A stretch of 62,903 nucleotides of DNA, counting the filler, from Asterionella formosa (Eukaryota): NCBI GenBank assembly GCA_002256025.1. It is 18 parts of 18 records of this genome, joined end to end, with 100 filler letters (N's around TTAATTAATTAA, not from the genome) between each part and the next. Parts side by side here need not be neighbours in the genome. Positions count along the whole stretch, not along the records: positions 11,770 to 41,362 come from NKIB01000996.1; 17 more parts are not named here. One strand, written 5' to 3'. Positions 5,787 through 31,400 of the stretch are shown one piece after another. The notes beneath the pieces were generated by a model that worked only from the letters and a program-made list of their open reading frames with translations, made no database searches and was not told where the DNA came from. Each line of letters opens with the position of its first letter. Position 1 is the first letter of the stretch. The position numbers and the translations under genes were made by a program.

Positions 5787-5886
5787 NNNNNNNNNNNNNN
5801 NNNNNNNNNNNNNNNNNNNNNNNNNNNNNNTTAATTAATTAANNNNNNNNNNNNNNNNNNNNNNNNNNNNNNNNNNNNNNNNNNNN

Positions 5887-8316: not shown

Positions 8317-8640
8317 CTACATCTAAGCCGCGTATTACGTGAAGTGACCATCACGTAAATAAGCCTAGTTGATTTTGAATGGATCACATGAATTAGTTGA
8401 ATACATCAAAATGCTTACTTGAATATATCTATATATTATCTGAATACATCACGTTCATTATTTGATCAGAGTATCATGCATGCATTCCTGATCATCACTA
8501 TATTACATGATCACCTTCACATAATTATTTGAAATACTTCACATAATTATTTGAAATACTTCACATAATTATTTGAAATATTTCAATTAATTATTTGAAA
8601 TACTTCACATAATTATTTGAAATACTTCAATTAATTCTGT
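8317..8640 (+). repeat. Dispersed repeat copy 1 (probable DNA-transposon terminus) with a 22-bp tandem array
   Basis: Begins CTACATCTAAGCCGCGTATTACGTGAAG and is nearly identical to 42892 onward. Five units of CTTCACATAATTATTTGAAATA (one variant) lie at 8515-8624. Confidence 0.85.
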
Positions 8641-9808
8641 AATTCAGTTCTCATTGCCTTAAATTTTTGTTCATGTAATTCTATAATATGGTTCACGTAA
8701 TTTATTAAATTTTTTACGTATTTTATAAGTACTATCAAATAATGTTGATTACTAATTCAACAACCGGTATTTCACATTACATGGGAAACAAATCTCGATA
8801 TGCAATCAAACAAAGCAGCTCTTTCAGAATGGCATCTTCAGTCTTGAGAAGGCAGGCATTATGAGAAGTCTGTAAGGACAATGCAAGACAAACAGAAGCC
8901 ATGCATTCTGAATGAAAAAATCATTCATTCTTGAAGAGGCATTATTGCACGAAGTTGCAACATGAATGCATCACACACTGGCTTCCTTCTTGTCCTTGAA
9001 ATGACTTGCTTCTTCATTGACCTGCAGAGATTTTCATAACAACAGTGAGTCAGTAATGTATATGATAGAACTAGCAACAGCAGAAAGCAACACACAGTTT
9101 ATTCCGGACCTCATTGTCCCTGCCTGTTGTCAACAACAATGGGTGAGCTGACAAGCCATACTAGCATTTAGGTACACAACAAGAACACACTCACCATTCA
9201 ACTGTATTGCAGAGTTCTTTCATTTGAGTCGAGGATTCAATTGACATTGCAGCAACCTATGCAGTTACAGAAACAATGAGAAGGAATGATTTGCTAGCAA
9301 GTAGTCATGTTACATTGAAACAACGACACGCAATTCCATCGTATCCTCTTGCTTCACTTACCACAAATCAATGCAACTGATGCATAAGTCTGTAATAGTA
9401 ACTTGTCAGTAAATTCTTGAATAAGTAAGTTTCGGGTATCCAATGTTGTTGAATAAAACTTACCGGTACATTTTTGTCATCTTAACTTTGAGAGAAGGTA
9501 AACGTTTTGTCAGCTTTGTTCCAACAGAAGTGAATAGGTCCAACAAGCGACAGGAGCACTTACGCAATTTGGTTTTGTTTTGTTTTACATTGGTGCTCCC
9601 CAACAAGCGAAACGAGCTGTTGAATCAACTGAGAAAAAAGTAAATGTGGCTGCGTTTAGTTAACAATTTGTTGTTGTGCTGCCTGTCTCCCAACGATTGT
9701 CATCCAAGNNNNNNNNNNNNNNNNNNNNNNNNNNNNNNNNNNNNNNNNNNNNTTAATTAATTAANNNNNNNNNNNNNNNNNNNNNNNNNNNNNNNNNNNN
9801 NNNNNNNN

Positions 9809-11669
9809 TTTGGATGGACGGGAGCTCATATGAAACTACAATTTTACCAAGCATCTGAGATGCGTGACTGGATACTATTGGATAATCAATCAAGTGTCAC
9901 AGTCTTTTGCAATCCAAAAATGGTTAATAACATTCGAATGTCAACCAACGGAAGCATGCACCTGGCCACAAATGGTGGATCCATGGTAACTAATATGAAG
10001 GCTGATCTTCCAGAATGGGGAGAAGTATGGTTTAATGAAAAGGCAATCACAAACATCTTCAGTTATACCGAAATGGCAGATAGGTACAGAATTACCTATG
10101 ACTCTGAGAAAGAAGATGCATTCATTGTTCATTTGCCTGACAAAACAGTTCGATTTGAAAGAATTGGGATGAACTTATATGTTTTCAAGCCAAATACAAG
10201 AATGAGAGCGGAGAATGCTCAAATGTTAAATACACTTGAAGAAAACAAAACATTTTACACTGAACGTCAATTTCAGAGAGCTAAGCGAGCTCGTGATCTA
10301 TTTCATGCCTTGGGTACACCATCAATTAATGATTTCAAGGCAATAATTTGTATGAATACGATCAACAATAATCCAGTGACTACCGATGATATCAAAATTG
10401 CAGAGAAAATTTTTGGGCCTGACATCGGAACACTAAAAGGCAAGACAACTCGTCGCAAGCCGCTGCCAGTCGTGAACGACTACATCGAGATTCCTAAGGA
10501 GCTTATTCAAGCTCAACGCGAAGTGACTCTTTGCATGGACGGAATGAAAGTCAATGGACAATCATTTCTCACAACAATTTCTCGAAACATTATGTATAGG
10601 ACAGCGCAATGGGTCAAGAATCAGACAGCTGAAGTCTATCGAGATGCTTTGATTCAAGTATTCCGTGTTTATAATACCGGAGGATTTAAAATTACAACAA
10701 TCCACTGTGACAACGAGTTTCGACCTTTGATGGAACAAATTTCCAATGAATTTCAAGTCACTATGAACTACGCAAACCCACAAGAACATGTTCCCGAAGC
10801 GGAGCGAAATAATCGAGTGATTAAAGAACGCGTGCGCGCAGCTTATCATCGATTACCTTTCAAACATTTGCCGCGACTGATGATTAAGATTCTAGTGACA
10901 GAATCTGCAAGGAAACTGAATTTTTTTCCGGCAAAGAATGGGATATCCCCATATTACAGTCCTCGTATGATTTTACATCAACGAAACCTGGACTATGCTC
11001 GACATTGCCAGTATACATTTGGCACTTATGTCCAAGCACATGAAGAACCTGTGTTTTCAAACACAAATGCACCTCGCAGCCTAGATTGCATTTTTCTACG
11101 CTACAATGACAATGTGCAAGGAGGTCATGAATTGTTACACCTACCTACAAATTCATTGATCACTAGACGAACAATTACTCCTCTACCACTTACCCCAGCA
11201 ATCATGAATCAAGTACACGCCCTTGCTGTGCAGGAAAATATGCCAGATGGTCTCAAGATAGCAAATCGAACGGGGCAACTATTTTATGATAGTGCTTGGA
11301 TTGCAGGAGTGGATTATGATAATGAAGCATTTGAAGATGCACAAGATGAAGATTATGAAGATCAAGATGCTAGTGACAACGAAAGCAATGATGAAATTCT
11401 TGGAGAAGAAGACTATGACGAAATGACTCCGGATGAAATATATGAAGCAGAACAGCTCGAATTAAATGACAATACTCAAGAGGATGACCCTGAACCTGAC
11501 GAGGGCAACAATGAGAATAATATTGAAATGAATTCAGATGAAATCCAAGATGAGGATGAAGAGCCAGCAAATGAAACTGAAAATGAAGAGGCAATGTTAG
11601 AAGTCAATCCAAGCACTCAGGATGACTCAGACCCAAATGTTAGAACTACAAGGTCTGGAAGAGTCTCAA
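9809..11669 (+). mobile_element. Ty1/copia (diatom CoDi-like) pol fragment, protease to integrase, with an uninterrupted ORF; truncated at both contig ends
   Basis: WILLDNQS protease motif; integrase D (LCMDG), D (IHCDNEF) and E (HVPEAERNNR); acidic linker; RTTRSGRVS. Highly similar to the reverse complement of about 18620-20480. Confidence 0.93.
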
Positions 11670-11769
11670 NNNNNNNNNNNNNNNNNNNNNNNNNNNNNNN
11701 NNNNNNNNNNNNNTTAATTAATTAANNNNNNNNNNNNNNNNNNNNNNNNNNNNNNNNNNNNNNNNNNNN

Positions 11770-12390: not shown

Positions 12391-12956
12391 CCAGGTACCA
12401 GGGTACACAGGAGTATTGTACCTGGTGCGGTACCGGTCTCGGTATACTCCTTACTACGCAAAATAAAATGTGATGACCGCCTCGTCGCCTGCCTGCTGGA
12501 GATCAACAATGACTTTGTTATTGTGCGTGGGTGTGGGTGTGGTTGCCCTATCGTAAATACACACCAGCACCATCTAAAACTATCGCCGTAGTAGTGTGTC
12601 CAGGCACTCCTCCATTAGCAGGTACTCTGTAACCCTGCAATAATGTATAGCTTCTACGTATAAATAAATCGATTGATTTACCGGTATGTGCTATGTATGA
12701 GCAATACTGTACGACCATGGCACCGGTACCAGGACCACTCCGCCCCTGGTACCTGGTACCAGGGTCCCTGTCACCGGTACCTGGTAGTAATACACTGTGA
12801 TCACCAGTAATCAACAGCCTTTGCTTATTATTTTAGCCACCTGCATCACGATGTACACAGTACCTGGTACCTGGTACTTGGTAGTGAGTGATCTAATCCC
12901 ATCCTTAATTAATGTTCCTGCTTTGCAAGGCAACTAAATATCACAAAATTGTTGCA

Positions 12957-15089
12957 ATGGACTTTTCTACAGCTGAGCGCTCTCTGGAGTCGCTTGGGCG
13001 CCGCCGCCCTCCTCTGGAAGACGGACTCGTGCAGCTTTCCGTCAGCCTGTTGGCAAAGGACTGCTGCGAAGATGCACGTGTCGATGGAATCCTGACTCTT
13101 GTGCAGGAAACTCTCTCCACTCGTTGGGAGGCTCTTGCCGTGGGCATCTTCCTGGCAACGGAACTTGTATTACAGCACTTGGATACTGGGGAGACGATTT
13201 ACGTTGATGGTCCCCGTGTTCCGACTGTTCGAAAGGAAGAACACGAAACAGTCGCCAAGAAGCTGCACGTTTCCGAAGCTGATTTACTTCGCCTTTCGCA
13301 AGCACTCTTGACAGCAGCCACGGCTCATTTGGAACACCCCGAACCCCGTATTCGAACACTTGTCGCCAAAGCAGTCGGAGCCCTGGTCACACTTAGTGTC
13401 ACTCAAGCCAACCTGAATGTGTTACCCTTGTATGACCATATCGTCGAGTCCCTGTACAAGCACCTGGATCAAGGTCGCGACACTGAAAGCAAGCACTCAC
13501 AGACTTCCACTGGGGCCTTGGATGACACTACTGGTTGGCGTGCTCTAGAAACCAATTGGCAAGGCCTAGCGAGCTATATTGGCGGCCTTGGGAATGCGTT
13601 CTTCGCTCGTCATGAGTTGACCCCTAGCCTATTAGAGGCATGTGAGTACTCTTGCGTGACTCATGTCAACCGACATGTGCGGGCTGCAGCCATTGTTGTC
13701 TTGGAACAGTGGATCACTGTTGCTCCAACAAACTTGTTGATGGAATCACGTCTTCGGACCACTATGGTTGACGTCTTGAAGGTGACACTCGGCGACAATT
13801 GGTCTCAAGTTAGGATGGCCGCGAGTGTCCTCAACCGAAAATTTTGGATGGTTTTGCAGGAGAAACTCCCGGAGGAAGACTGGAACACATCAGAGCTCTA
13901 TCCCGCCTTACTTCCTAGGATGTGTCTTAATCGATTCTATTTGGCTCAAGGCGTCAAGCTATACTCTCTTGAGACTTGGAAGATTGTCTTCGCGAGTGGA
14001 AATGGTTTGCAGGCTGTAGCAGCCACCACAGGTGCCGTCTGTCGGTATTATGTCAAAATGTGCGATGCTGACAATCACGCTGTGAGAGAAGCTGCCTGCC
14101 AAGCTGTGGCTGAGCTTGCTGAGAAAATCGGTACCCACCCGGAATATGGCGAGTGTCTCAGTCCATTTGTTCCCACTCTCTTGCAAGCCCTGTTGATGTG
14201 CTTTCACGATGAATCTTGGCCTGTTCGTGATGAAGCATGTTTGGCATGTGGAAAGTTCTGCAAAGCTTATCCTCAGGAATGTCTTCCAGAACTTGCTACT
14301 TTAAAAACTCGTTGGTACGAACAGCTAACTGATCAAATTTGGAGTGTTCGGCAAGATGCAGCAGTTGCCATTGGAGACGCTGTTGTTGCCTACCCCTCTA
14401 TGATGGATGAAGTCTTGCAATTTGTCAAGGATAAGCTCCCTTCTGCTCGTGATCAGCCTCCAATGAGCAAGGAAGCTTTCAAGAATCATGTTAATGATGC
14501 TGAAATGCATACTGATCTGCAGCTATATTCATGTGGATCTCTTGCACCCAAGCTACGTAAGGGAGGAGCTGGTCGCATTGGGTGTTCCTCATGTGGAATC
14601 TCACGACCCAAAGCACCATGGGAAGCAACAGATGGGTGCATTTATTTGCTACGCGAATTAATCCTTCTTGACAAACTGGATGATGAAGCACTTATGCCAC
14701 TCATGCAAGAGTTAGCAGATGTTTGTAGAGTGAAACATTTCCCGCAAGGTGATGATTTGAGAACCACCCTATGGAAGCAGCTTCCGGTCATGGCTTCGGC
14801 TTTGGGCAAGCAAAAGTTCAAACGCCTTTATTTGGACATGTTTATGGATTTGCTCTTTGGCACGCTCGATGATAGAACAGCCTCTGGCCTTTCAAAACAT
14901 GCCGCCGGACAGTGTGCAGAAGATTTGAGCCACTTGGTTGGATCTGGAATCTTTACGGGTCGTCTTGATGAATACCAGAGAGAATTATTTGCTCTTGTGA
15001 TTCAAGAGCGTCAAGCAATGCCTAAAGGTCCCATGTTTGATGTTCTATCACCATTTAGTCCTCCAGGCTTTGCTGAGTCAATTCAGTGA
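12957..15089 (+). CDS. HEAT/ARM-repeat protein
   Basis: Intact single-exon ORF with repeated HEAT motifs (HPEPRIR, NRHVRAAA, DNWSQVRMAAS, DNHAVREAAC, DESWPVRDEAC, DQIWSVRQDAA) and a Cys-rich YSCGSLAPKL..GCSSC segment. An upstream in-frame ATG lies at 12912. Confidence 0.88.
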   Translation: MDFSTAERSLESLGRRRPPLEDGLVQLSVSLLAKDCCEDARVDGILTLVQETLSTRWEALAVGIFLATELVLQHLDTGETIYVDGPRVPTVRKEEHETVAKKLHVSEADLLRLSQALLTAATAHLEHPEPRIRTLVAKAVGALVTLSVTQANLNVLPLYDHIVESLYKHLDQGRDTESKHSQTSTGALDDTTGWRALETNWQGLASYIGGLGNAFFARHELTPSLLEACEYSCVTHVNRHVRAAAIVVLEQWITVAPTNLLMESRLRTTMVDVLKVTLGDNWSQVRMAASVLNRKFWMVLQEKLPEEDWNTSELYPALLPRMCLNRFYLAQGVKLYSLETWKIVFASGNGLQAVAATTGAVCRYYVKMCDADNHAVREAACQAVAELAEKIGTHPEYGECLSPFVPTLLQALLMCFHDESWPVRDEACLACGKFCKAYPQECLPELATLKTRWYEQLTDQIWSVRQDAAVAIGDAVVAYPSMMDEVLQFVKDKLPSARDQPPMSKEAFKNHVNDAEMHTDLQLYSCGSLAPKLRKGGAGRIGCSSCGISRPKAPWEATDGCIYLLRELILLDKLDDEALMPLMQELADVCRVKHFPQGDDLRTTLWKQLPVMASALGKQKFKRLYLDMFMDLLFGTLDDRTASGLSKHAAGQCAEDLSHLVGSGIFTGRLDEYQRELFALVIQERQAMPKGPMFDVLSPFSPPGFAESIQ

Positions 15090-16189
15090 GGCCATCCGTT
15101 TATTCAAAGAGGGTAGTAGGTTTAGAATTTCTTGAACTATCCACATTAGCCACAGAATATCAAAGTAGAAAACTTCAAATACAAACCATGTCTACTGATA
15201 AATCATATTGGTGAATTTGGCAGTTCTATATACTGGAATATGTGTCTCATAAAAATGCTTCATTCAACATGTCAAAATCAGCCTTTCACTTGCATCACAT
15301 ATCAGTGTATCAAGGCACACCTACAACAAAGCTCGTAGTCAAAATGTTCCTTTTCTGGGTTTGTTTTTAAAGCTACAACTTGTTTTGCTAGTTTCCCTGA
15401 GTCTTTGATGAGGGCAGTTGGTAAAACCTATAATACTTCTGAGGCTATTACATAATATTCATCAGTCAACATTGATTCGATACCCCAAAAAATCAATTAA
15501 GACGACTAAGCTAGTGACCCTCCAGTGACCATGGTGGTAGCATTTGCAACCAAATGAATTTAAGGCTTACATATCTGTCTACATGGATAAATGAAAGGCA
15601 ATGCTATCAACAGGCGAGTTATTTGTCAACCAGATGGATCTTTGGATCATTTGTTCGATTTAGCATCATTTTTAATCCCTAATTACATTCCAATGCAGCA
15701 GTCATGTGCGGTTATTGTTTCAAAATTAAGTACATTCATATGTTGTATCCATTATTTCAGGATTTCAAGATCTGGCAAACAGACTTGATTCTCGATGACA
15801 ATGCTTTGAAGCTTTATAAATTCCTTGCTGACACTCATAAGCATCATGTCTACTTGTTGGCCAAGCTTGGCTTTAAAACGCCGAACAGACCTTCAACATG
15901 AAAATCTTGTGGACTTTCAACTTCCTGGTGATGCCCCACCACGCCTCTTTATTTAAGGCCGGAAGAATTCTAGCTAATCTAGATGTTGAAAGTTATATTA
16001 ACTCCGGGTGACATTGAGAGTCTAATACTGAGTCAAATCATGAAATGTCTTGTTGGATTAAAATTGGGATTGAAAGGTTGTTGGATTAGAAGTCTTGAAT
16101 TGTATTTGGTAAGATTGAATTTGGCAGGATTAAGTTTGGCAGGACTGGTTTAGCATGGTTGATAGTTAGAGGAGTGTGAGACTTGTTCC

Positions 16190-17070
16190 AACATTCGATG
16201 GAGATCACAAGAATTTTCATATGTGGAATACTCGATTTAGAGCATTTGCCACAGTTTGCCGAATGCCCGAGACATTAACCCCAAAGGCCATGATGCCAGC
16301 AAGAGAAAATGAGATGCATGACTGATGAAACAACTGAGGTTTGCAAGTTGAAAGTATTGGCCATCAGAAGAAATGGTGTCGTAGCTAGCTATGGCAAATC
16401 TGTCAATGGCATTCACATCTGAAAAAGGAAAAATGGGATTGGTGTACAAGGCGATGACTCCAGAGTGGCCTGGTGGGCTTGCTTATTTGGTTGTGGAAGC
16501 TCTGAACAAGAAGTATCGCCCTCAAGGCACAATTACAAGAGTTAAGCTCAGGTAGAAGCTCTATAAAGTGGATATGAAGAAAAAATCAAGACCCTGCTAC
16601 ATTATTTGAGCAGGTGAGTAGTATTGAGAATCAATAAAATGCTCCAGGGTCATCCTTGATGCAGCGCGAGAAGAATATCATGCATTACTTGCTTATGTCG
16701 GAATACAGGCTTCATGGCAATAATCTAGCTTCAAATGATTTGGAGACTAGCTTTGATGAATCAATTTTGGAGGCAAGGGAAAACCCACAAGACCAATGAT
16801 GGCAATGATGCTGCTGAAATATCATTGAGTGCATTTGGAAGTGTTATTTCCAGAATAAGGGGCATACAGCCAATAAGTTCCCAGAAAAATAGAACAAAGC
16901 TGGAGAAGGAACACATAAAGAAAATGGTGAAAAGCTCAATGGAAGATTTCATAACTGCCTGTGGAAAAGTTGGGCACAAAGAAGCCAATTGTTGGGAAAA
17001 GGAAGAGCACAAACATAAAAAGCCAGAGGGTTTAAAGTGCAGAAGTGCAGAGACTGCAGTTGATAAATGA
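16190..17070 (+). mobile_element. Decayed Ty1/copia gag from a second family
   Basis: Pieces FDGDHKNFHMWNTRFRAFA, MANLSMAF, EWPGGLAYLVVEALNKKYRP, DPATLFEQVSSIEN and a zinc knuckle CGKVGHKEANCW, with several stops and frameshifts. Confidence 0.75.
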
Positions 17071-20000
17071 AAATGACATTTGTAGTCACCTTAAGTCATC
17101 GTGCTTCAAAAAAAAGTCCACAAAACCTTTGAGATAATGTCATCAACACCAACCAATTCTGCTTCAGTCGAACTTACAGTGTTCACTTTCTGTTACGTGG
17201 ACATAGAACAAATAATTCCGTCGCCAAGTGACAATGTGGCTCCAGTATGACTTTTAAAATCTTTGTGTACTGCAAAAGCCGCATCAATGTACTATTTAAT
17301 GCTCAGAGTGTCATCAGCACTCATAGATTCAACCTCATTCTGAGTTGCTTTCAAGAAATTCGTTATCTTGTCAAATTTTGCGCAATCGCCTTCATTCGGT
17401 TCAGTAGTTTGGGTTGACAGAAATGCAATTCCTGGTTGAATGTCCTGTCTTCCTCGCTTACATAGGAACATTCCTTTCATAACAAAAGTATGAAATATTT
17501 TTGCTTTTTCATATTCAAGCTTCTTTGATTTTGTATCAACTGTGAACAATTTATCTGTCCATGGGAATTTCCCAACACCTTCAAGTTTGTCTGGAAAATC
17601 ATCAATCATTGATTTCACATATTTGGTCATGCCCACCCTCAACACTCCTGGAAGAGAGTAATCTAGTGTCATCGCCAAAGAATCATGCTTCTTTCCACGC
17701 ATAACCTTGACTTCACCAATTTCGTCAAAAGCGTATTTCTTTTTGAGCCATTCCAAAAATTGATCATTCACTTTGCTGTCACGTGACTAGATTTCAAATC
17801 GTCTACGTGCCAAGTAACTGTGTGCTGTTTGCCATTAACAATGCGATTTGCAACACATGGATCATATGGGTTTACCTTGAATCCAATTGACTCAATATCC
17901 TTCCGAAATTTCTTATAATATAATAATGATGACTGTAACATGCCATATAATGCCTTGATCATCCTAACATATAGGACCTTGTTGTTCCCTTCATAAACAA
18001 CATATTTTTCATAAGTCTCGGGGCTGAGTTCTGTCAACATATTGACAAGTAAACCTCTAATCTTCATAATGATTCGTTCCCCTTTTTCTTTCTCATCGAT
18101 ATCCACTTGCACAAATGCATTGGGTATATCTGCAGTCATAACATCGCGATTTTGCTTCGCATCAATTGTTGCTGTTATCATAACAGATTCAGTCATGGTA
18201 GTTGGACTAGCTGCTTCATCTCTTTCCATGTATTCACGTTGCGAACTGCCATTGGCACATGCTCTGCCTTTAATGCTCTTGTCTCTCTTTTCAACCAAAA
18301 AATTAGAATTTCCATTGCACGGCGCTTTTCAATATCGGTTAGGTCTTCAATCCTAATCGGTTCAAATACAACTCTATCATGTAGTTGTTTCATTTCTTTA
18401 TACACAGCGTCTCTTCCTTTCTGTCCAAATTTCTTGAGGCCTTTTCTTAAGCTGTATGACTGAACAAAGTGAAATAATTCTTTATCGATACACATCTCAT
18501 TCATATAACACATTGTCATTGCGATCACTTTCGCGTTATCAGTCGTGTATTCTTCTCGACAGTGTGCTTGTTGGGTATGCAAATGATTTTGGACCATAGT
18601 TAGTTTAGACGGTGGTCTTGAGACTCTTCCAGACCTTGTAGTTCTAACATTTGGGTCTGTGTCATCCTGAGTGCTTGGATTGACTTCTAACATTGCCTCT
18701 TCATTTTCAGTTTCATTTACTGGTTCTTCATCCTCAAATTGGATTTCATCTGCATTCGTTTCAACATTATTTTCATTGTTACCCTCAGGCTCAGGGTCAT
18801 CCTCTTGGATATTTTTGTTTAGTTCGAGCTGTTCCGCTTCATATATTTCATTCGGAGTCATTTCATCATAGTCTTCTTCTCCGAGAATTTCATCATTGCT
18901 TTCGTCGTCACTGGCGTGTTGATCTTCATAATCTTCGTCTGGTGCATCTTCAAATGCTTCATTATCATGATCCACTCCTGCAATCCAAGCACTACCATAA
19001 AAAAGTTGTCCCGTTCGATTTGATATCTTGAGACCATCTGGCATATTTTCTTGCACAGCAAGGGCATGTACTTGATTCATGATTGCTGGGGTAAGTGGTA
19101 AAGGAGTAACTGTTCGTCTAGTGATCAATGAATTTGTAGATAGGTGTAATAATTCATGACCTCCTTGCACGTTGTCATTGTAGCGTAGATAAATGCAATC
19201 TAGGCTGCGTGGTGCATTAGTGTTTGAAAACATAGGTTCTTCATGTGCTTCTTGGACTAGACATAAGTGCCAAATGCATACTGGCAATGTTGAGCATAGT
19301 CCAGGTTTCGTTGATGTAAAATCATACGAGGACTGTAATACAGGGATATCCCGTTCTTTGCCGGAAAGAAATTCATTTTCTTTGCAGATTCTGTCACTAG
19401 AATCTTACTCATCAGTCGTGGCAAATGTTTGAAAGGTAATCGATGATAAGCTGCGCGCACGCATTCTTTAATCACTCGATTTTTTCGCTCCGCTTCAGGA
19501 ACATGTTCTTGTAGGTTTGCGTAGTTCAAAGTGACTTGAAATTCATTGGAAATTTGTTCCATCAAAGGTCGAAACTCATTGTCATAGTGGATTGTTGTAA
19601 TTTTAAATCCTCCGGTATTATAAACACGGAATACCTGAATCAAAGCATCTCGATAGACTTCAGCTGTCTGATTTTTGACCCATTGCGCTGTCCTATGCAT
19701 AATGTTTCGAGAAATTGTTGTGAGAAATGATTGTCCATTCACTTTCATTCCATCCATGCAAAGAATCACTTCGCGTTGTGCTTGGATAAGCTCCTTAGGA
19801 ATCTCGATGTAGTCGCTCACGACTGGAAGCGGCTTGCGACAAGTTGTCTTGCCTTTTTAGTGTTCTGAGCTTAGGTCCAAAAATTTTCTCTGCAATTTTG
19901 ATATCATCGGTAGTCACTGGATTATTTTTGATCATATTCATACAAATTATTGCCTTGAAATCATTAATTGATGGCGTACCCAAGGCATGAAATAGATCAC

Positions 20001-21984
20001 GAGCTCGCTTGGCTCTTTCAAATTGACACTCAGTGTAAAATGTTTTGTTTTCTTCAAGTGTATTAAACATTTGAGCATTCTCCGCCTTAATTGCTGTAAG
20101 AGGCTTGAAAACATATAATTCATCCCAATTCTTTTGAATCGAACTGGCTTGTCAGGCAAATGAACAATAAATGCATCTTCTTTCTCAGAGTATTAGGTAA
20201 TTCTGTACCTATCTGCCATTTCGGCATAACTGAAGATGTTTGTGATTGCCTTCTCATTAAACCATACTTCTCCCCATTTTGGAAGATCAGCCTTCATATT
20301 AGGGACCATGGATCCACCATTTGTGGCCAGGTGCAAGCTTCCATTTGTTGACATTCGAATGTTTTCAACCATTTTTGGATTGCAAAAGACTGTGACACTT
20401 GATTGATTATCTAATAGTATCCAGTCACGCATCTCAGATGCTTGGTAAAATTGTAGTTTCATATGAGCTCCCGCCCATCCAAATTGATCGACATTTGCTT
20501 GTTGTGAAGCTTGTGATGACGGTGGGTTGTTGGAATTAACAGAGGTAACTGTACTTGTGTCCGATGTAGTAGCCTGCTGTGCCTGTGCATGGCTTTGTTG
20601 GGCCTTGCTGATAGCCCATTCCTCTTTGGTTTATTCTTGTCTTGGCATGAAGGGGATTTGTGTCCTGCTCTACCACAACAGTAACATTTTCCCTCTAACT
20701 GTGCAAACAAAAAGTTTACATCTTCATCTTCCTTCCCTGCATCCTTTTGTTCTCTCTCTTTATTATGATCTCCTGGTTTCTTGTAGTTGGATTTATTTGT
20801 TACGTCGTTGCTGAGAACATTATTTGATTTGGTGATGGTCTTTGGGTATTGATCGTTGCCAAGTGATTCTTGAGTGTTCAGCCCGGTCATGATTGATCCA
20901 TTTTTGGCTTATCTGCATTATCGAGGTATAAATAGGCCTTAAATTGACCGAAAGCTTGTTCACGAAATTTATCTTGTTGCTTGATGTCGGTCTCGTTTTA
21001 TCCATCCATGGCTTCAACGAACTTGGTGAGGATAATGGGTTCTCCAATGCTGTGTTACTTGAGCGCACCTCGTGCCACACGAAATCTTTGGGTGTAGTCT
21101 TGTAGACTTTCTCCTTCCTTTTGCTTTGTGAATAAAAGCGTTCTCATTGCATCTAAAATGATCGACATAGAATATCGATTTTCTTGAAAATTTAGTGCGT
21201 GTTCTTTAATTGCCATAAGCAATGTTATTGGGTTATTTTTGATCCTATTGTAATTGGATCTCGCTTCAATCTTGTTCTTCATGGCTTTGTTGCATCTTTC
21301 CCAGAGCAACGCATATGCCTTGGTATTAATATTTTCTTAGGCCTGTACCCTTTTACTGTAGGTGTCATAGTCAGCCTTGAACTCAATCTCATATTGTCGA
21401 TTCTCTGCAGTGCGATCTTCTTCTGTTGTTGCAATGCTCACATGCATTCTTGGCTTCCATGCCAGTGTATTGGTTCTAATAACTCTAGTGCAGTTCCTAT
21501 GTCATTGCCATAGTCAAACACTTTCTTGATATGATTGATGAGGTACTCAGTAGTAGTCTCATAATCAGATGCCTGCTTCGATGATCCGAGGTAGTAATTA
21601 TAGTCATTAACTGGCTGACTTCTTGATTGAGTGAGAAGTAATATTGCTCCCTCCCTCCTTGGCTTGAAACTTGCCCTTGGCTTGAGCCTTCTTGGTAAAC
21701 TTTCCTTTGCGCCTTGTGCGTCTTCTTCAGACTCTGGATGGTCTGGTACTCTCAGATCTTGTCTCCGGACTCTCAACGGTCCACCTGTTGTTGATTGTGA
21801 TGTATGGCTCTCTCTGGCCGGCTAATTCTACTAAAACTGTTGAAATTGCACCTCAAAGCACTCTATGCTTTCTTGTACCCTTTAAGGACATGTCAGGGAC
21901 CAAATAGGCTGTAGATATGAACAAGGATGCTGCTGTAATCGATTGTAATCATTCCTAAGAGTTTTAGTAGAATTATGGGTTTCA
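17062..21984 (-). mobile_element. Ty1/copia (CoDi-like) retrotransposon with 5' LTR, gag, protease, integrase, RT and partial RNase H; multiply frameshifted, 3' end missing
   Basis: Gag knuckle CYCCGRAGHKSPSC; WILLDNQS; integrase core; RT motifs IKGRACANG, ADIPNAFVQ, KALYGMLQS and WHVDDLK; RNase H motifs YIDAAFAVH and SSTEAELVG. Domain order is copia-type (integrase before RT). Confidence 0.95.
21838..21984 (-). repeat. 5' LTR (~147 bp, TGAAA...TTTCAACA) of the copia element
   Basis: TG...CA termini directly upstream of gag. The 3' boundary is independently supported by the homologous fragment at 51258-51339, which diverges right after TTTCAACA. Confidence 0.8.
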
Positions 21985-22133
21985 CTGTTGGCGTAGATTG
22001 TTTTCGAATTCTGAATTTTCTCTGGTACCATACAGTATTCTTTTTGATTCATTCGATTCAATATGTAGTAGGTAATTTATACCGGGATTCTTCTTTCCTA
22101 AAATAATTTCTCCAACATCAGTGGAATCTGCTT

Positions 22134-23130
22134 TTGGTGCACATGAGCAAAATATTTTTGCATGCAGGAATGCGTGCCAACTGTTTACCAAAAGCTGTAG
22201 GTTATGCAGAGGCACTAGCTACCTCTTTGTACTTGCTTTTCACTGGATGCTGTAGGGATACAAAAGAGACCGCATACTTCAATGCTGCCATCCCGAATGC
22301 ACTTACCTGCTACCGATGGATCCATGATGTCGATCTAGCCAAAGGGTGCTGGAACTGGCCTACTCTCAACCATGCAGCAACAAAGTGGAATGCCATTATA
22401 CAAGCCCTTCAGGTCTTCAATCCAACACTGACTGCAAAGCCGTGGTGGAATTTTGACGAATTCTCTGCAGGCAGGGCATTGAATACTCTCGTCAATGGCA
22501 AAGAAACATGGCACGCAGTGTTGAATGAGCTAGATCACGTTAATAGTATTCTTGAAGGAAAAGTTCTAGGAATTGAGGAGAATCAAATGATCGAAATAAT
22601 GTTGAGGGACCAACAACAGAATACAAGGAAATTGTTGAAACTGTAAGTGAACCCACGAACGAAGTAAGAGAGGGAGAAAGGTAGTAATTCGGTCCCCTTT
22701 TTGATAGTATCAATTGTGATGGCGTTAAATGAAATTATGATGCCTTCACTTTGCCAATTGTTGCTTAAAGACGAAAAATCACTGTGCTCCTCTCCATTGA
22801 GTGGATTGTCGATTCCACACAGCACCAGCACAGAGCGTCAACTGTATGAATCTACTTCAGTGGTGACTATCCTTCGACTTAAACCCGGGACTTTTCTTTT
22901 GCCTCATTGTGGAATCACCAATTCGAGGCTAATAATGCATATCTCCCTGAGTGAAACCAACGGAGTTGAACTAACAGATGGGGATAAAATGATAAAAAGG
23001 TACATAGGGGGAGTTGGCCACGGAATAGTCTTCGATGACAGCTATTAGCATTTCATTCACCACGGAGGACACAAGGACCGATTAGTATTATTTTCCGCAT
23101 CAATATGGCGTCGGACTCTGATTCTTTAGT
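22134..23130 (+). pseudogene. Aspartyl/asparaginyl beta-hydroxylase-domain pseudogene
   Basis: ILRLKPGTFLLPHCGITNSRLIMH and IVFDDSY*HFIHHGGHKDRLVL match AspH-type motifs. In-frame stops occur at 22644, 22665 and 23046, the last just before the distal His. Confidence 0.75.
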
Positions 23131-23257
23131 GTAATCATTGGTTCAATATCCACTAAATCATAACTTCCTCCTATTCTGGGTGACCACGATAAAAAGTTTG
23201 TCCTTGAAGCGAAATATCCTATGTACATTATGAAACATTTTCAATAGAAACATTTGT

Positions 23258-26200
23258 TCAGGTGTCTGGAGTAGGCAAAATCAGTCTGTTCTGAAAACTC
23301 CCTTGTAAAAGGAACGAAACAGGGAGACGATAACGATTGAAGGCACAAATCAAGTTCCACCAGATGGTGGCTTGAATATTCGTCCCGTCTCTCCATGCAG
23401 GATTCAACATTCCTTTCACACCATCTGAACCATGAATTACGTGATCAAGTTCCTTACGGAGCACCCAAGGAGATAGCATTTCACAATACAAAGGAGTACC
23501 CTTGCCTTGGGATCCTTCAAATGTTGGAGATGAAGTGGTGACAGTAAGGTGTGGCACAAAGCGGTGTTTGCACTGTGGACATTGAGTTGTAAAGTCCTCG
23601 AAACCGCAAGGATTCCACCCCTTCACAACCTCGTCATCACTCAAGATATTGGAGCAATGCGGACAAGAATCGTTGCTTGTGTCGATATGAATGTCTGGAT
23701 ATAAGTAGTCAAGAAGACTTTCACCCAAGACCACTTGCTTAAGAACACTGGCTGGCAAGGCCATACCAACTTTTCTGGGAGAGCCAAACGAACGATTTCG
23801 GTTCTTCTTCGCCTTCCTCTCTTTCGGCGCCTTCTTCTGGATAATCGGACTGAAAACTGCAGAATACAGGTTAAAAATGAGAGATGAGCCCTTGGCACTG
23901 CTTGTTTCTGAATCATCAAAGGAATTGACCACGGAATGGGACATTTCATCATCTTTTTCTGTCAAAGAGGTATTTGATTTAAATTGTTCGACTTTTTTGG
24001 TCAAAAAACTTGAGTAGGCATCTAATTTTCCATGGCTGACTCCTCCTGAAGCACCCTGACTAGGCATGCCAAGAAGGCTCTCATCCTGCGCAAATGCAGT
24101 CATGAAACACGAATAGATTTCACTATCGGCTACAAAACCATCACGCTTCATGATCTGAATGAGCTGCTTCGCACGATCAGTGCTGCCACAACGTGCACAT
24201 GCCTCCATAAGACTCTTGAATGCATCTGCATCAGTGGATAATCCTCGAATGGACATTGTGGATAAGGAATCAAATGCAAGGTCTAACTGAGCGGTTGAGA
24301 CTGCTCGCGCTTCTTCGAACGCCGCAAGGCCGTCATCAAAAAAGTCCAACAAACTAACATCTCTCCCTTGTCTAGAATCGTTCTTTGGAAAACCCGAACC
24401 AGAATGACTATATTTCATCAGGAAGACGTCTGAGTTGCCTTCATTGTCTTGCGGACATACCTGGTGGGAGCAGTCCAATACCAACGAGGAAATTTCTGCA
24501 TGCATGGTAGCCATTTCCGACTCTGAACATGGATGCCAACGCTTGTCAGCAGGCGAAGCAGATTCTTCTTTTTTCTCCTCGTCGTAGGGTCCAGGTGAAG
24601 GTCCTTCTGTTGCAGGAAAATCTCGGGGCTTGTCACCCTGCCCCCCTTGTTCAGCTTTTCCGGTGTGGTGTTCGGCAATTTCACATGCCTTGAGTTCTTC
24701 GAGTTTCCTTTCACGTTCGTGGTAGTCTTGCCATTCAAGACCAACTACGGCACCGTAACAAAAGAAGAAAACTGTAAATGTTGCGACTTCAGGGGAAGGG
24801 TCATAGTCAGCACCGTAGAACTCTATCAAAGCGGCGGAAGGATCTACTCCGCAATATTGTTTTGACTGTAGTCGTTGAACAAGAGAAGCCTGCCTATCGA
24901 ATTCAGCAGTAATTATCTTTGGAATAGGTCTCGGTTCCCCGAACAATGACGAATCGAAACTATCGGGCCAAATTTCATAGCGATAGGCCTGTTGTTGCGT
25001 TTCTACCTCGAATTCTTTGATTCGTAGGCAGTCCTCGTTTGGCTCAACCGCTCGAAGAGTTTTTAGAACTTTGTGTGCTTTTGCGCTCTGCAAAAATGGC
25101 GTTTCAACTTTCTTCAGTTTCAGTCGACTGCGATTATCCTTTGCATCAATGCTTTGATCAAAAAAGATTACATCTGCATCATCGGGATTGTACATTCGCT
25201 TGGTGATAAAGTCGTCAAACTGCTGCGTCATACACATTTCTTGGAAGAAGGGTTGCTGATCTGATTTTTGCCAAGCAATAAAACCACTTCGATCGAATGT
25301 CATGTGGCTACTTGTCCACCGACCTGGCTTCACGTCCGAAGTCTCGGTCCCATTTGCTTCAGGGACATGCAAAAACTTACGATAAGTCTTCAACGTGGAA
25401 ACAAAGAAACGAAGGAAGGCTTCTTGAACTTTGTCCCATCGACTCTGGGCATCGTTGTCCTCGGCATGGGCTGCATGGACAGAGTCAGGTAAGTATGCCA
25501 TACTGAAAGCATCGTCAAATCCCTTTAGTTTCTCCTTCCATCCTGTATTTCCCTTGACGTCATACATAATTCGAAAGGATTGCGGTGTCATCTTGCCTTT
25601 TAAAACCATTTGATACTCTGCGTCTAGACAGCGAGTTTTCCAGAAAAGTTCTCCAGCATTTTCTTCCACAGCTGCTTGCAACTTATTCCATTTCCTCAAC
25701 GGAGGAGTGGACAATTTCGGCGTTTTCTGGCCCAGTGTGACTTTGTTACTATCCAGATCTACAATAATTGTCTCCGCGCTGATATGCTCTTCTGCATACA
25801 TCAAATTCTCTCTAATTAACCCCACAAGATATGGAATAGGGGCATCCAACATGGGGCTCAAGAATTTTGGCAACATGGGAATATATAAATGGCTCCATTG
25901 CATCGGAAAAAGTAACGAGCAAAGGATCTCGGAGCAGATAGTCAAGATAGAGTATTGGCTAGATATCAACAATATCTTTTGTTCCATAACTAGTGCGTAC
26001 CACACCAGGAGAATATTATTGATCTCCAAACAATCAAAAAGAGTCTGATATGGAAGAGCAACGTAAGCAATGGGAAGTTTGGCAGGAGGCGCCCAAAACT
26101 TTATTGTTGATTGCAAAATGTTAATGTGTACTTCAAATGCTCCTGGTGGAGGTGCTGGAATCTCCAAACAAATGTTGAGAATATACCGTTCCAACGGAGC

Positions 26201-27010
26201 ACGCATCAAGTCTGTAGTAGTAGCCAAGCGGTAGAGCTGCGTTAAATATTCTCGAAAAGCAGTCAAGTACGACCAATAGGAAATTAACGACAAAACCCGT
26301 GGAACATAGAGCGTAGCACCCTTCGCTGAGTCCATCGTCACTTCAATATCGTCCACTCCAGTGTTTTCGTGGACCTTGTTGTTTTGGCCAAATGGCTCAT
26401 CTCCGGACGAAAGATACTCTTCGTATACAGTCAAACAAGTTCCATAGATCTTTCTTCCTTTTTCGTTTGTTAAGACAAAATGATGAATTCTTGGCAGGAC
26501 GTAAGTAGTCGATGGAACAATCGAGTCCGAATGCGGGAAACAGAACTGAACAATCATTGGATTGAGCGGATTATCTGGATAGTCCACCTCGGGAAACCTG
26601 GCCGTAATCGCAGGCTTGAAGGTATACTCAAAGGCACTTCGAGGCATGTGAATGTTCCCACCGTCGTCGTCAGCAACCGTTTCTTGGTTATCTCTCGATT
26701 CTGGTTCATCCACCGGGTGACATACGATTTGTTGACGTATCGATGGTTTGGCGGCCATCCCCTTTTTCTTTCCTATCCGCGGCGAAAACTGTTTAATGGA
26801 TGGATCGACTTTTGGTATTGTCGAGCCGTTGTTCTCCCATCGTGGCTGACTGCTCACCACGACAAAGTATTCCACCAGGCGCTGAATCGATGTTGTTTCT
26901 TCCGTCCTGTCTTCTGCTGTGACTCTACGTCGTAGCTTGACATTTTGAGTTCTCATGGGACAATTGGAAGCTTTGCTGCTGGTAGGATGACTATCATCTA
27001 ATTCGGCCAT
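23258..27010 (-). CDS. DENN-domain Rab GEF, DENND4/CRAG-like (uDENN-DENN-dDENN, PPR motif, C-terminal CxxC region)
   Basis: 1250-aa intact ORF with LVEYFVVVS, QFCFP, HHFVLTNEKGRKIYGTCL, LLFPMQWSHLYIPMLP..LDAPIPYLVG, TQQFDDFI, a PPR-like AFKSLMEACARCG, CPHC/CPQC and LSPWVLRKEL. Confidence 0.93.
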   Translation of the reverse strand: MAELDDSHPTSSKASNCPMRTQNVKLRRRVTAEDRTEETTSIQRLVEYFVVVSSQPRWENNGSTIPKVDPSIKQFSPRIGKKKGMAAKPSIRQQIVCHPVDEPESRDNQETVADDDGGNIHMPRSAFEYTFKPAITARFPEVDYPDNPLNPMIVQFCFPHSDSIVPSTTYVLPRIHHFVLTNEKGRKIYGTCLTVYEEYLSSGDEPFGQNNKVHENTGVDDIEVTMDSAKGATLYVPRVLSLISYWSYLTAFREYLTQLYRLATTTDLMRAPLERYILNICLEIPAPPPGAFEVHINILQSTIKFWAPPAKLPIAYVALPYQTLFDCLEINNILLVWYALVMEQKILLISSQYSILTICSEILCSLLFPMQWSHLYIPMLPKFLSPMLDAPIPYLVGLIRENLMYAEEHISAETIIVDLDSNKVTLGQKTPKLSTPPLRKWNKLQAAVEENAGELFWKTRCLDAEYQMVLKGKMTPQSFRIMYDVKGNTGWKEKLKGFDDAFSMAYLPDSVHAAHAEDNDAQSRWDKVQEAFLRFFVSTLKTYRKFLHVPEANGTETSDVKPGRWTSSHMTFDRSGFIAWQKSDQQPFFQEMCMTQQFDDFITKRMYNPDDADVIFFDQSIDAKDNRSRLKLKKVETPFLQSAKAHKVLKTLRAVEPNEDCLRIKEFEVETQQQAYRYEIWPDSFDSSLFGEPRPIPKIITAEFDRQASLVQRLQSKQYCGVDPSAALIEFYGADYDPSPEVATFTVFFFCYGAVVGLEWQDYHERERKLEELKACEIAEHHTGKAEQGGQGDKPRDFPATEGPSPGPYDEEKKEESASPADKRWHPCSESEMATMHAEISSLVLDCSHQVCPQDNEGNSDVFLMKYSHSGSGFPKNDSRQGRDVSLLDFFDDGLAAFEEARAVSTAQLDLAFDSLSTMSIRGLSTDADAFKSLMEACARCGSTDRAKQLIQIMKRDGFVADSEIYSCFMTAFAQDESLLGMPSQGASGGVSHGKLDAYSSFLTKKVEQFKSNTSLTEKDDEMSHSVVNSFDDSETSSAKGSSLIFNLYSAVFSPIIQKKAPKERKAKKNRNRSFGSPRKVGMALPASVLKQVVLGESLLDYLYPDIHIDTSNDSCPHCSNILSDDEVVKGWNPCGFEDFTTQCPQCKHRFVPHLTVTTSSPTFEGSQGKGTPLYCEMLSPWVLRKELDHVIHGSDGVKGMLNPAWRDGTNIQATIWWNLICAFNRYRLPVSFLLQGSFQNRLILPTPDT

Positions 27011-28480
27011 TTTTGTGAGTCGGGAAAATCGACCGTTCTAAACTTTCCAACGGTATTTATAACCAGTTATATTATCCGCAGTTTCGAATGAAAGATCAAG
27101 GTCGCCAATAATAGCAGTTGCGGCTCTTTCAGAGGGGATTGCAGAAATGGATTTCTAAAGCTAAGATACTGCCAGTCAATACCGATGCAGATGATAGAGA
27201 GGCTTGGATAGGACAATGTTCCTGCTTCCTCGGATGGGATGGGAACATATATGGGTGACAGTAATGAAAGAGTTTTTATATAATGTCTACTACTGTATTA
27301 TAGGGGGCCGTAGACTGATACCGTTAAGCATATTCTTCTCTGAATAATGTTGTACATACATTATGAATCCATTTACCTACCGGGTCTGCCGGTATAAAAA
27401 TAATTAATAAAACCATGTAACAATACTACAGTAATCGGTAATCCTACAGTACTGCTTCTACCATAAAATTTCTTCAGGATTTTGAGTCACCTGATCATTT
27501 TTGGACTACCGGTAGGTACCTGGTTCAGTACGGTTAAATATCTACGTACACATTCAGTTCAGTAACTGATACCAGCTACCTGGTAGGGGTAGTCTACATG
27601 AAATGGGAGTTGGTTTCCCCCTGCCGGGATCGAAAGCCGAACTTTGATCCTGTGCTCCAGTCGTTGAACGGTCTAAAATCATGATACTGTATCATGAGGA
27701 TGAGGCTGGGCTGGCTTTGGCGACGATGCACGCCAGAGCAGCGATTCACTCTTATGTATTTCTTGCCGACGGAAGGACGAATCCCAGAGTGGGTGCGCGC
27801 CATTATAAAACTACCCGGTACTGGTATTCCTGAATGCATTGAATCGACTCCTACGACTAGATCTGTTCGGGCTGCAAAGTGAAAATGAGTTTCAACAAGA
27901 AATCCATCGAAGTGCATTTATTTCGTTCTGTGAAGTGCATTGAAAGAGTGCTATATAGCGCTGTTCTTTGTATTGTTTTCGTGGTAAGTGTTCTGGCGAC
28001 TTCAAAATCAGTTCGTTGGAACTCTGCATGGAGGCAAAATGTGGAAAATGAGACTCTTGTGTTCACATACCGGTAAATTATTGTGATGCTGGAATGAGGG
28101 AATTTCCGATACTTACATATAACATGCGCTGCACACAAAACTTGAATCGGGTTTTTTTGGTGGCTCAATTCGCGAAAACATGCCTCCAAACCAAATTATC
28201 AAACCTTGCGCGCCTCTCGATTTACCCTGGGTCACAATGATTATCAAAACATCATTTTGTTCGAATCATTCTCCACAAAGAATGAGATGTCTCCCGCTGC
28301 CACACACTGTTTCGTGATTCTACGGCAGATTTACGCATTCTCTCGTACATTCAACTAGGGTTCAGTTCAGTTTCGTTCATTACAATCATTGGATCCTCCT
28401 GTTTGTTTCTTGCACCACAAAGACATGCACTCACCCAACTGCCTCATTGCAGATTGATCTGGAAACAAGAGTCACGTATA

Positions 28481-31400
28481 ATGTCGGAAGAAGGGGGATT
28501 GGGGCCTCGTTCCCGTCGTCGGACTGCCAAGGTTGTGAACTATTCCAAGGAGCAAGACTTTAGTGACGATGATGTCTTTGAAGACGACGACGAAAAGGAA
28601 GACATTCGGGTCACTGCTACCAGGACTACATCCACCAAGAAAAGAGGGCGTCCTCGGAAATCTGTCGATCCATCAGGCGAACCAGAGCCGGACGAGGAGG
28701 ACTTTGGACCTACAAAACCTCTATTTACAGAGAAAGGGTATGATCCAACCTTACCCCCTATCCGTGAACGCTTCACATTCCTACCGGAGGTTGAGGCCGA
28801 CGGGTCTCCGCGCATAGAACTGATCGTCGGGCGTCGCCCTATGGGTCTGGGCGTCAAGAATGGCACTGTTGAAGATGTCGAGCAAGATGAGGACGACGGG
28901 GAAGGAGGAGGTACTCGCAAGCGTCGTTCTACCAAAATGAAGGCATCACCCCAAAAGAAAAAAGATGCAACGGGGGAGATTACTGAGTATGAATACTTGA
29001 TCAAGTACAAGGGGGTCTCTTATCTCCATCTGGACTGGAAAACTGGTGGTGATCTTGAAAGTATGAATAGATCTGCAAAGAATCTCTACCGTCGTTTCTT
29101 AAAGAAACTTGCTCATGGAATCGAAGAAGACATCGAAAATCCAGAAATAGACCCCTCTTACGTCCTCCCTCAGAAAATTGTTGATGAGGCCGATCAAGAA
29201 GTCAGTGTGGAACTTACAGACCAAGAACTTGTCAACTGGGAAAAAGAAAATAATGATGAGGAAGATTCCGACGAAGACGATGTCAAGTTCGAAAAGATGG
29301 ACGATGAAGAGTTAACCGGAGTTACAGAGAATGGCACTGATATCAAGAATTCTGGAAACGGTGAGGATGGTAAGTCAACCCTTTCCTCAATCGCCACCAA
29401 TTTGTATGCATTGCAGCTAACCATGCCCCTAAACGCAGACGACCTCGATGTCATCGATTTTGACGACGATATTGACTTCGTCACAATCCCTATGGATAAA
29501 CTTCGTGTCTTGGCGAAACGTGTTGAGCCTTATTATCCGGTTATTGAAGGATCCGACAACCCGTACCGTGATGGATACGTCACGGAGCCCCCGAAGAAAT
29601 CCAGAGCCTCCTACCTTTTCTTTCAATGTACTATGCGTTCGTACTTTCTGAGACGGAACGAAAATGCTTCACAAGCCGAACTCATGTCTATTCTAGGAGA
29701 AGCATGGCGAAATATGTCTGAGGCAGAACAAGCCCCCTTTGTTCAATTGGCGAAAGAAGAAGCTGAACAGTATGAAAAAGAGAAGCTGTTGTTGGAGAAA
29801 GCACAGAAACCTAATGAAGTGTGGCAGCCAATGCGCCGATGCTTACAGGTCCTCGACGCGATGGTGAGCGACGGATTTTCCAACATCTTCCTCGAGCCTG
29901 TAGACCTCAAAGACTTCCCAGATTACGAAGACATTGTCGACACTCCAATGGATCTTGGAACTGTACGAAAGAAACTCGCTGGCAAGAAATATGCTGCACC
30001 AGAAAACTTCGCTCGCGACGTTCGCAAGGTATGTGCATTCTTCCTCTAGACTTTCACCCACATTAATTGTGATCTATACTAATGTTGTCAAATTCTACCT
30101 CCTCATAGATCTGGAATAACTGCAAGGTCTACAACCAGCATGGATCTGCGATTTGGTTCGTTGCCGATTACATGGCAAAGAAATTTGAAAGACTTTTTCA
30201 GGCATGGGTGCTTGGATTCCGTGACCGCTATTTGAGGTGGGCTCACGCGAAAGCCAGACCATGGGAACATTCATGCAGAATGCATGATGGCAAATGTCGC
30301 ACTCGTGACGCCAAGATGATCATGTGTGATCACTGTGACGCGTCCTACGGAATTGAATGCATGAAGCTCAATACAGTACCAGATGGTGCTTGGCATTGCC
30401 CGGAGTGTAAGCCAAGACTCAAAAAGGTTAAAGAGATCAGCCTCATGTCTGCAGTTTCCGAGGCAGCCGCACGAAAAAAGGCCGAGCTTGGTGATGTGCC
30501 CAAAAAGAAGGTCCATCGCACTATGTATCTTGTGAAATGGGCCGGCCTTGGTTATGAGTTTTGCACGTGGGAGACGAGGGAAGATGTAAATGACGACGCA
30601 CTAATAGACGAATATCAACGTCTGAACAAAATGACTCCCGACGAACCCGAGCTTGCTGAAGAGGCCGTGAACGAGGTTCTCAAGAACGTCAAGCACATTT
30701 CAGCTACGAATGCTGGTGGTACTGCATGCATTCCCGATCTTCGTGCTCAGCTCTACGCTCAATCTCGAGCGTTGCATTTTTCTAAATTCGGCCGTGATTT
30801 ACCGATTCCGCTTTCTGCAGAAGTTGGACCATTCACGAAATCAACGTATTTGGTCGACGCGGCGAATAATGAGGGTCACGAGTCCGAGACGTCCTCATTT
30901 TCAAACGAGGTAGTCGAGTGCATCGCTGAACTCGTGCACCGTGTGGTGCGAGCTGATTCTCAGCCACTGATGAACATAAATGCGTCTCTCCCCCCACTTT
31001 TGACGGGGGAATACGATGCTATCATTCCCATAACATCAAAGGGACTGATGATGAATGTCGGTGAAATCCACGGGTCAGTTGCCTTTCTTGGATACAGAAT
31101 TTTTCCTGATGGGAGCAAGGGGCCAGCTGAAATTGCAAATCTAATCAGAAATGTCGGGGACAAGATCATCGCTGTCGATGGCGTCAGCACAGTCAATAAG
31201 TCGTTCAAAGATGTGATTCTCTTGTTGCGTGATAGCGGCAAGAACAAGTTTGCATTCATGCGGTTTCTGGAGAACCGATTTAGTGTCTGCAGCAATGATT
31301 TGACTAGTGTGGGCAACATGGGACGCTATACTGTCGAGGAGCTCCATAGAAAGTTTACCACCGATCGTCAAAGGATGCTCGTTCAGAGAAAGCAAAATCT

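Follow-up and report, generated by a model that had tools for sequence, protein, structure and literature searches.

Self-priming of reverse transcription, in which a long terminal repeat (LTR) retrotransposon is primed by its own RNA and not by a tRNA, has to our knowledge been demonstrated for Tf1 only; predictions of it exist for a small number of gypsy lineages and of plant copia lineages. Tf1 and Tf2 of Schizosaccharomyces pombe, and the Tf1/sushi group, have no tRNA-type primer-binding site (PBS); the site 3′ of the 5′ LTR complements RNA derived from the element's own LTR. Tf1 RNA pairs with the PBS through its first 11 bases and is cleaved by RNase H between positions 11 and 12 (PMC7175516, in the section cited). 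A 62,903-nucleotide stretch of DNA from the diatom Asterionella formosa (GenBank assembly GCA_002256025.1), here called the window, carries a degraded Ty1/copia retrotransposon with a comparable arrangement. The bases at the 3′ border of its 5′ LTR are a perfect complement of a segment inside that LTR, and related diatom lineages retain the complementarity with different letters. Tf1-like self-priming in this diatom Ty1/copia clade is the favored reading, with a probability of roughly 70%.

The likeness to Tf1/Tf2 and Tf1/sushi extends to an encoded RNase H and to pairing that is kept across relatives. Tf1 is a Ty3/gypsy element, whereas the diatom element is Ty1/copia with an RVT_2 reverse transcriptase (RT). 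It falls outside the Tf1/sushi clade, as its RT is RVT_2 near the C-terminus and not RVT_1 with integrase after RT. The duplex is 14–17 nt in the diatom lineages versus 11 in Tf1, and includes the last LTR base in three diatom lineages. Unlike in Tf1, we infer both the position of the LTR arm at the RNA 5′ end and its cleavage.

Within Ty1/copia, the plant TAR lineage, to which Houba and Osr-1 belong, is predicted to self-prime, and earlier proposals for these two elements are cited in the same paper (Neumann et al. 2019, PMC6317226). As proposed here for the diatom element, the TAR PBS is predicted to be served by the element's own RNA and not by a tRNA; the TAR host is a land plant, whereas the present host is a diatom. 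The initial annotation of this locus held that copia elements normally use tRNA. That premise is incomplete given the TAR prediction, and copia self-priming is therefore not a new idea (PMC6317226, in the part cited). Fungal GalEa copia elements also lack a tRNA-type PBS and have a conserved structured sequence at its position, the 'Conserved Hairpin Site' (Donnart et al. 2017, PMC5445492). The GalEa site is a 9-bp palindrome whose pairing partner is a repeat a short way downstream, and the cited part of that paper reports that its authors found no LTR complement. In contrast, the diatom site lacks a palindrome and pairs with a segment within the LTR, 85–165 nt upstream. By description, the element is set beside the CoDi elements, diatom-specific groups of Ty1/copia of ~5–5.7 kb with short TG/CA LTRs and a CCHC gag. 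CoDi LTRs are 153–844 nt with TG/CA ends, and the terms tRNA and priming have 0 occurrences in the main text, as consulted, of the paper describing them (Maumus et al. 2009, PMC2806351). Full-text literature searching returned no paper that describes priming sites in diatom copia elements or proposes that they self-prime. The present element is a new, well-supported member of the self-priming elements, in a diatom Ty1/copia clade, with priming itself deduced from the arrangement described below.

The LTR-internal arm, TAATTCTACTAAAACT (21960–21975, minus strand), corresponds to LTR nt 143–158, is directly preceded by CCCA and is the candidate self-primer. The PBS-side arm, AGTTTTAGTAGAATTA (21823–21838, minus strand), consists of the last LTR base and the adjoining 15 nt on its 3′ side, the usual position of a PBS. 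On the minus strand, all 16 nt of 21838→21823 match the reverse complement of 21975→21960, and there is no TGG beside the LTR end; both observations of the initial annotation are confirmed. A repeat scan reports the same inverted pair as 19 nt at 95%. When the window LTR was shuffled 1000 times, the longest complement to the site was 12 nt versus 16 observed. Because the shuffle maxima lie below the observed length, chance is excluded. The longest complement in 14 control windows further downstream of the site was 7 nt. In a single-sequence RNA fold of the window, the helix is within the minimum-energy structure (−39.9 kcal/mol, z = −2.83).

The 5′ LTR extends over 21838–22117 (minus strand, 280 nt), reads TGTTGGAG...GCAATTTCAACA and has the terminal inverted repeat TGTTG/CAACA. 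Its boundaries were determined by alignment with four metagenome copies of the family (L001–L004) and by sequencing depth. Flanks diverge exactly at both LTR ends in the alignment. Homology among copies with different upstream flanks (the window, L002, and L001/L003/L004) begins at TGTTGGAG and ends at CAACA. For depth, contigs from four runs, two of DNA and two of polyA RNA, were placed on 16000–23000 at 85% likeness. Summed depth in run X1 is at repeat level, ~6e5–1.3e6, from 17170 to 22083, and is ~1e5 in 22084–22317 versus ~900–1300 in the single-copy flank. Exact single-copy contigs start at 22092–22094, and repeat-level depth reaches about 22090–22117. The initial annotation placed the LTR start at TGAAACCCA (21984) by the TG...CA rule alone, and the family alignment and depth refute this placement in favor of 22117 (TGTTGGAG). 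Position 21983 is C>T in nearly all copies (787597/803151 depth, X1), and the supposed TG reads TA in the family. The arm had correspondingly been numbered LTR nt 10–25, which is wrong, as it is nt 143–158 of 280. A transcription start close to the 5′ end of the LTR, leaving a minimal U3, had been proposed as well and is unsupported: ~142 nt of LTR, including a conserved TATAAAT, precede the arm, and with the LTR start at 22117 no minimal U3 is needed.

The LTR 3′ end, ...TTTCAACA at 21838, was placed correctly and is matched by a copy at 51258–51339 and by five metagenome copies. The former (plus strand) comprises the last 82 nt of another family LTR and opens a small contig of its own. Over these 82 nt it is 88% alike, and homology stops exactly at ...TTTCAACA. 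Unrelated sequence (CCAGAAGAC...) comes next, and the copy is therefore the end of a 3′ or solo LTR; it directly follows a linker and is therefore silent on the LTR 5′ end. A polypurine tract, CAGGAGTG, is found directly before the LTR start in L001/L003/L004 and in the more distant relatives L006, L007, L008, L013, L015, and L016. LTR pairs are present in L006 and L016.

Family copies were collected by a metagenome scan using a pattern from the last 22 nt of the LTR, with the PBS excluded, which returned five loci (L001–L005). Both arms are visible in three of the five (L001, L002, and L003), and each of these keeps 16/16 pairs. Their arm reads TAATTCTATTAAAACT and their site AGTTTTAATAGAATTA, with one compensatory change: a C:G pair in the window is U:A in L001–L003 (UA:3, CG:1). 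RNAalifold predicted a 16-bp helix from the four sequences, with all 16 pairs in 4/4 sequences. The covariation check suggested in the initial annotation is thus positive in family members, pairing being kept through one C:G to U:A double change. L005 has an altered PBS without an arm in view and carries the same one-position G>A as L001, L002, and L003. L004 consists of the LTR followed by flank. The viral contig collection gave 0 matches to the DNA pattern.

L005 encodes an open 1435-aa gag-pol (P0001). A protein search returned 545 homologs; the few with a named source are from Fragilaria crotonensis, Nitzschia inconspicua, and Nitzschia sp., and the element was therefore assigned to a diatom copia clade. 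A protein profile of 16 homologs was run on viral and prokaryote genome collections. The viral collection gave 23 pattern matches, none of which was confirmed, and the prokaryote collection gave 19 loci (L006–L024). These loci are diatom-type copia contigs within assemblies labeled as bacterial or archaeal metagenome-assembled genomes (MAGs), including contigs of 193 kb and 321 kb, and look like eukaryotic contamination or mis-binning. Five of the 19 reach the 5′ LTR border. L014 keeps 55 nt of LTR, leaving four assessable loci. A search of the five MAGs behind the loci recovered the contigs already found plus a handful of fragments, and no further 5′ LTR/PBS junction.

All four assessable relatives have a perfect duplex. 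In L006 (71% aa identity, LTR ~361 nt), arm ATTAATCTCGAAATACT pairs with PBS side AGTATTTCGAGATTAAT over 17 nt. In L016 (41% aa identity, LTR 493 nt, LTR pair 97.8% identical), arm ACTTCTTTAAAATAAT pairs with ATTATTTTAAAGAAGT over 16 nt. L007 (47% aa identity) is a circularly permuted contig with one LTR and pairs arm ATTGTTCTTTTGTTCG with CGAACAAAAGAACAAT over 16 nt. L008 (47% aa identity, LTR 130 nt) pairs arm CTTTTTCATAATTG with CAATTATGAAAAAG over 14 nt, and the PBS side directly follows ...GTTCAACA. A perfect complement of 14–17 nt is thus present in 5/5 assessable lineages, with the arm 85–165 nt upstream of the LTR end. Maxima were 9–12 nt in 1000 shuffles per LTR and 6–9 nt in 14 downstream control windows per element. 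The L007 and L008 duplexes are also the top matches of an unbiased inverted-repeat scan of the region. Complementarity is therefore not lost in relatives, the outcome that would have spoken against the original proposal, but is retained with different letters in L006, L007, L008, and L016.

Pair counts were anchored on the LTR end and made on the window, L001–3, L006, L016, and L008; L007 was omitted, its LTR end not being fixable. At least two Watson-Crick pair types occur at 12/17 duplex positions, and lineage pairs differ at 5–10 paired positions. A MAFFT cross-lineage alignment placed the arms of L016, L007, and L008 out of register and was not used for pair counts. One side of the pairing is available in three further loci: L014 has the site TTATTAAAAGAAGTG, which fits the pattern without testing it, and the 3′ LTRs of L013 and L015 have TCACTT... 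stretches at the expected place, which likewise do not test pairing. Several layouts among these copies are of separate interest. In L008, the PBS-side arm CAATTATGAAAAAG (L008:4536-4549) overlaps the gag start codon, and the element, with its 130-nt LTR, has almost no leader. L016 has a second, inverted LTR-PBS junction 1.3 kb past the 3′ LTR (L016:15929-16102), with arm and site intact. L001 and L003, and also L007 and L008, run from an internal 3′ end through a single LTR to PBS and gag, or are circular permutations with identical ends. This layout may represent collapsed LTR assembly, tandem elements, or one-LTR circles.

Complementarity, position, conservation, and covariation are observed in these sequences, and a self-priming cycle can be proposed that would account for them. 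A conserved CA, located at the arm or a short way upstream of it, would be where genomic RNA begins. Folding back across R-U5 (~138 nt), the arm would pair with the site just 3′ of the LTR, and its strand would be cut close to the LTR border by the RNase H that the element encodes. The released ~15-nt RNA would then prime minus-strand strong-stop DNA. Plus-strand synthesis would copy the primer, and the site would be rewritten from the arm every cycle. Such rewriting would thus allow perfect pairing alongside free sequence drift. An internal arm could still prime if the cut falls 3′ of the arm.

The arm starts at, or one base after, CA in 5/5 lineages (CCCA/T, CTC/A in three, and ATCA/C, with the slash at the arm start). 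CA at such a position is a mark of initiator-type starts, and its presence before the arm is suggestive of one. TATAAAT (LTR nt 37–43; 22075–22081, minus strand) is invariant in five aligned family LTRs, lies ~100 nt upstream of the arm, and is a possible promoter element judging from its sequence. Inspection by eye showed no TATA box that keeps a constant spacing upstream of the arm from one lineage to the next. PolyA RNA-library contigs from runs X6 and X10 lie on LTR, leader, and gag, and the family is expressed at some level. Record 16 of X10, a 5.3-kb polyA RNA-library contig from the host neighbor region (22054–23000), extends into the LTR over its initial ~60 nt, and a transcript of the host may therefore end or start within the LTR.

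Alternatively, the pairing may be a real, selected RNA structure with another role, such as closing R-U5, packaging, dimerization, or translation control, while a different primer is used. Covariation proves pairing, not priming, and the possible upstream TATA box would put the arm inside the RNA. Retroviruses have U5-leader stems around the PBS. The extra stem-loop of Rous sarcoma virus (PMC5445492, as cited there) also counts for a structural role. However, in 4/5 lineages the start of the paired site coincides with the LTR border, including or abutting the last LTR base, and it is this border that defines the first templated base of minus-strand DNA. In no lineage is the LTR followed by another candidate PBS, such as TGG or a tRNA-like word common to the lineages. 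A purely structural role, with priming left to a different primer, is unlikely.

A second alternative is that the primer at this site is a host RNA, such as an unusual or organellar tRNA, half of a tRNA, or another small RNA, with the LTR match secondary. Internal halves of tRNA-Met or tRNA-Ile do serve as primers in several copia lineages (PMC6317226, in the part cited). However, the site differs at 5–10 of 14–16 positions between lineages, with the LTR arm changing alongside, whereas a tRNA-copied PBS would reset each cycle and be common to related elements. None of the primer-site complements in the five lineages ends in CCA, and Rfam has no family matching 21600–22300 at E ≤ 1. On these sequences a tRNA 3′ end as primer is excluded. 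A shared tRNA half also appears unlikely, given that related lineages have different sites although each cycle would restore a site copied from a tRNA. Any host RNA primer is therefore given a very low probability. Finally, an origin of the inverted repeat as a ~153-bp miniature inverted-repeat transposable element (MITE) at a TA, as an assembly artifact, or by chance can be set aside: the arms are flanked by TA on both sides with 121 nt between them, superficially like a Stowaway-type MITE, but the copies stay homologous across the left arm and to either side of it and lose homology between the LTR and the right arm, the LTR is present and the right arm absent in L004 and in the 51258 copy, the same layout occurs in unrelated assemblies and lineages, and shuffles exclude chance, so that the MITE reading was rejected on homology boundaries.

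Several points weigh against self-priming. Transcription starting ~30 nt after TATAAAT, which lies ~100 nt upstream of the arm, would leave the arm internal, unlike in Tf1. RNA-library contig X6 record 31 (21938–22083) spans the arm. Like TATAAAT, it is compatible with U3-R of 3′ LTRs, and also with a start upstream of the arm. The RNA data are assembled contigs, which cannot show RNA ends, and the start is deduced from the LTR sequence. The search for tRNA genes covered the window, which contains none. The duplexes of the relatives were picked by complementarity, which makes the statement that all changes are compensated partly circular; the shuffle and downstream controls are independent of this. 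Five lineages are assessable, all on metagenome or mis-binned contigs, and in L007 the single LTR of the contig leaves its LTR end unfixed. The window copy is dead, and the support is computational. As it now stands, the proposal of a tRNA-independent, Tf1-like priming site is strengthened by the compensatory change and by the four relatives, while the LTR 5′ boundary first assigned is wrong, the minimal U3 lacks support, and the premise that copia elements always use tRNA is incomplete.

A broader form of the self-priming proposal is possible but doubtful. It holds that self-priming is the general and ancient initiation mode of a large diatom-specific Ty1/copia clade (hundreds of homologs, at least 41–71% aa identity), that the primer is the first ~15 nt of a transcript begun at the conserved CA within the LTR, and that this mode shares its origin with the predicted self-priming of plant TAR. 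Under this extension, tRNA-independent priming would be old in Pseudoviridae, and not an oddity of fission yeast and chromoviruses.

The element belongs to an abundant diatom Ty1/copia retrotransposon family. Its degraded gag-pol extends over 17069–21708 (minus strand) with several frameshifts, as determined by tblastn of P0002 and the list of open reading frames (ORFs). The intact 1624-aa relative P0002 matched with residues 4–1549 between 21708 and 17069, in several frames. Pfam identified the copia-type RT RVT_2 (PF07727) at 17768–18328 (E 1.2e-9) and a CCHC knuckle at 20459–20908. P0001, an intact relative, likewise has RVT_2, as do P0002, P0013, and P0031. Integrase upstream of RT is represented by a weak SH3_retrovirus match only (E 0.03, residues 814–874), with RT at residues 1142–1379. 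No rve integrase-core domain was found by Pfam, and a PDB sequence search gave no match. The words DNEF and AERNNR, which we take to be integrase-core motifs, occur at about residues 700–750 of the clade consensus.

The leader between PBS and gag (21709–21822, minus strand) contains a GCCGGCC palindrome, and its upstream part aligns with family copies. The gag ATG is deleted in the window copy; 31 X1 contigs that carry CATGAT at this place have a loose end at 21710. The copy also lacks the final ~75 aa, a polypurine tract, and a 3′ LTR. No direct repeat within 14000–24000 and no BLAST match was found for a 3′ LTR. A 3′ LTR candidate in 15000–17600 had a local alignment score of 49 versus a shuffle maximum of 48 and was rejected. 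The window copy is dead, being 3′ truncated and frame-shifted, with the gag ATG gone. A better-preserved family fragment is found at 9809–11668 (plus strand) on a separate 1.86-kb contig, where an open 620-aa piece corresponds to residues 412–1031. Its DNA is 93% identical to 18618–20483.

The 62.9-kb window is a chain of contigs and not one molecule, with N44-TTAATTAATTAA-N44 linkers between pieces. Neighboring pieces are therefore not syntenic, and features crossing a linker are meaningless. Contigs of ~1.86 kb fill 1–11769 and 41363–62903, and a single 29.6-kb contig (11770–41362) bears the copia element, the one retroelement on its minus strand. Host genes on this contig encode a HEAT-repeat protein (12909–15089), a DENN protein (23258–27037), a chromo/SNF2/bromodomain remodeller (28286–36880), and DCP1 (40195–41049). 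Where the copia copy is truncated at its 3′ end, it adjoins a different, moderately repeated sequence (16000–17169). This sequence has a summed depth of ~5e4–1.5e5 versus ~1e3 for single-copy sequence, and a plus-strand ORF within it (16729–17070) has a CCHC-like gag motif and no Pfam match. This sequence is probably another retroelement fragment. On a separate small contig, 6382–7368 (minus strand) contains a Ty3/gypsy-type RT and RNase H fragment (RVT_1, RT_RNaseH, and RT_RNaseH_2). Tandem ~220-bp repeats with 88–91% identity are found at 5081–5786 within a leucine-rich-repeat ORF (4629–5786).

If confirmed, these findings would extend self-primed reverse transcription to Ty1/copia elements of stramenopiles, in lineages where the covariation signal is unusually clean. 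They bear on whether hairpin or self priming came before tRNA priming in LTR retroelements, an idea raised in PMC3601003 (in the part cited). They also bear on annotation. One diatom genome annotation retained only LTR candidates with a polypurine tract and a PBS by LTRdigest (PMC7466962, in the section cited). Filters demanding a tRNA-type PBS would drop such elements and undercount copia in diatoms. The element-specific primer/PBS pair provides a simple marker for classifying these families, and could serve diatom retrotransposon tools.

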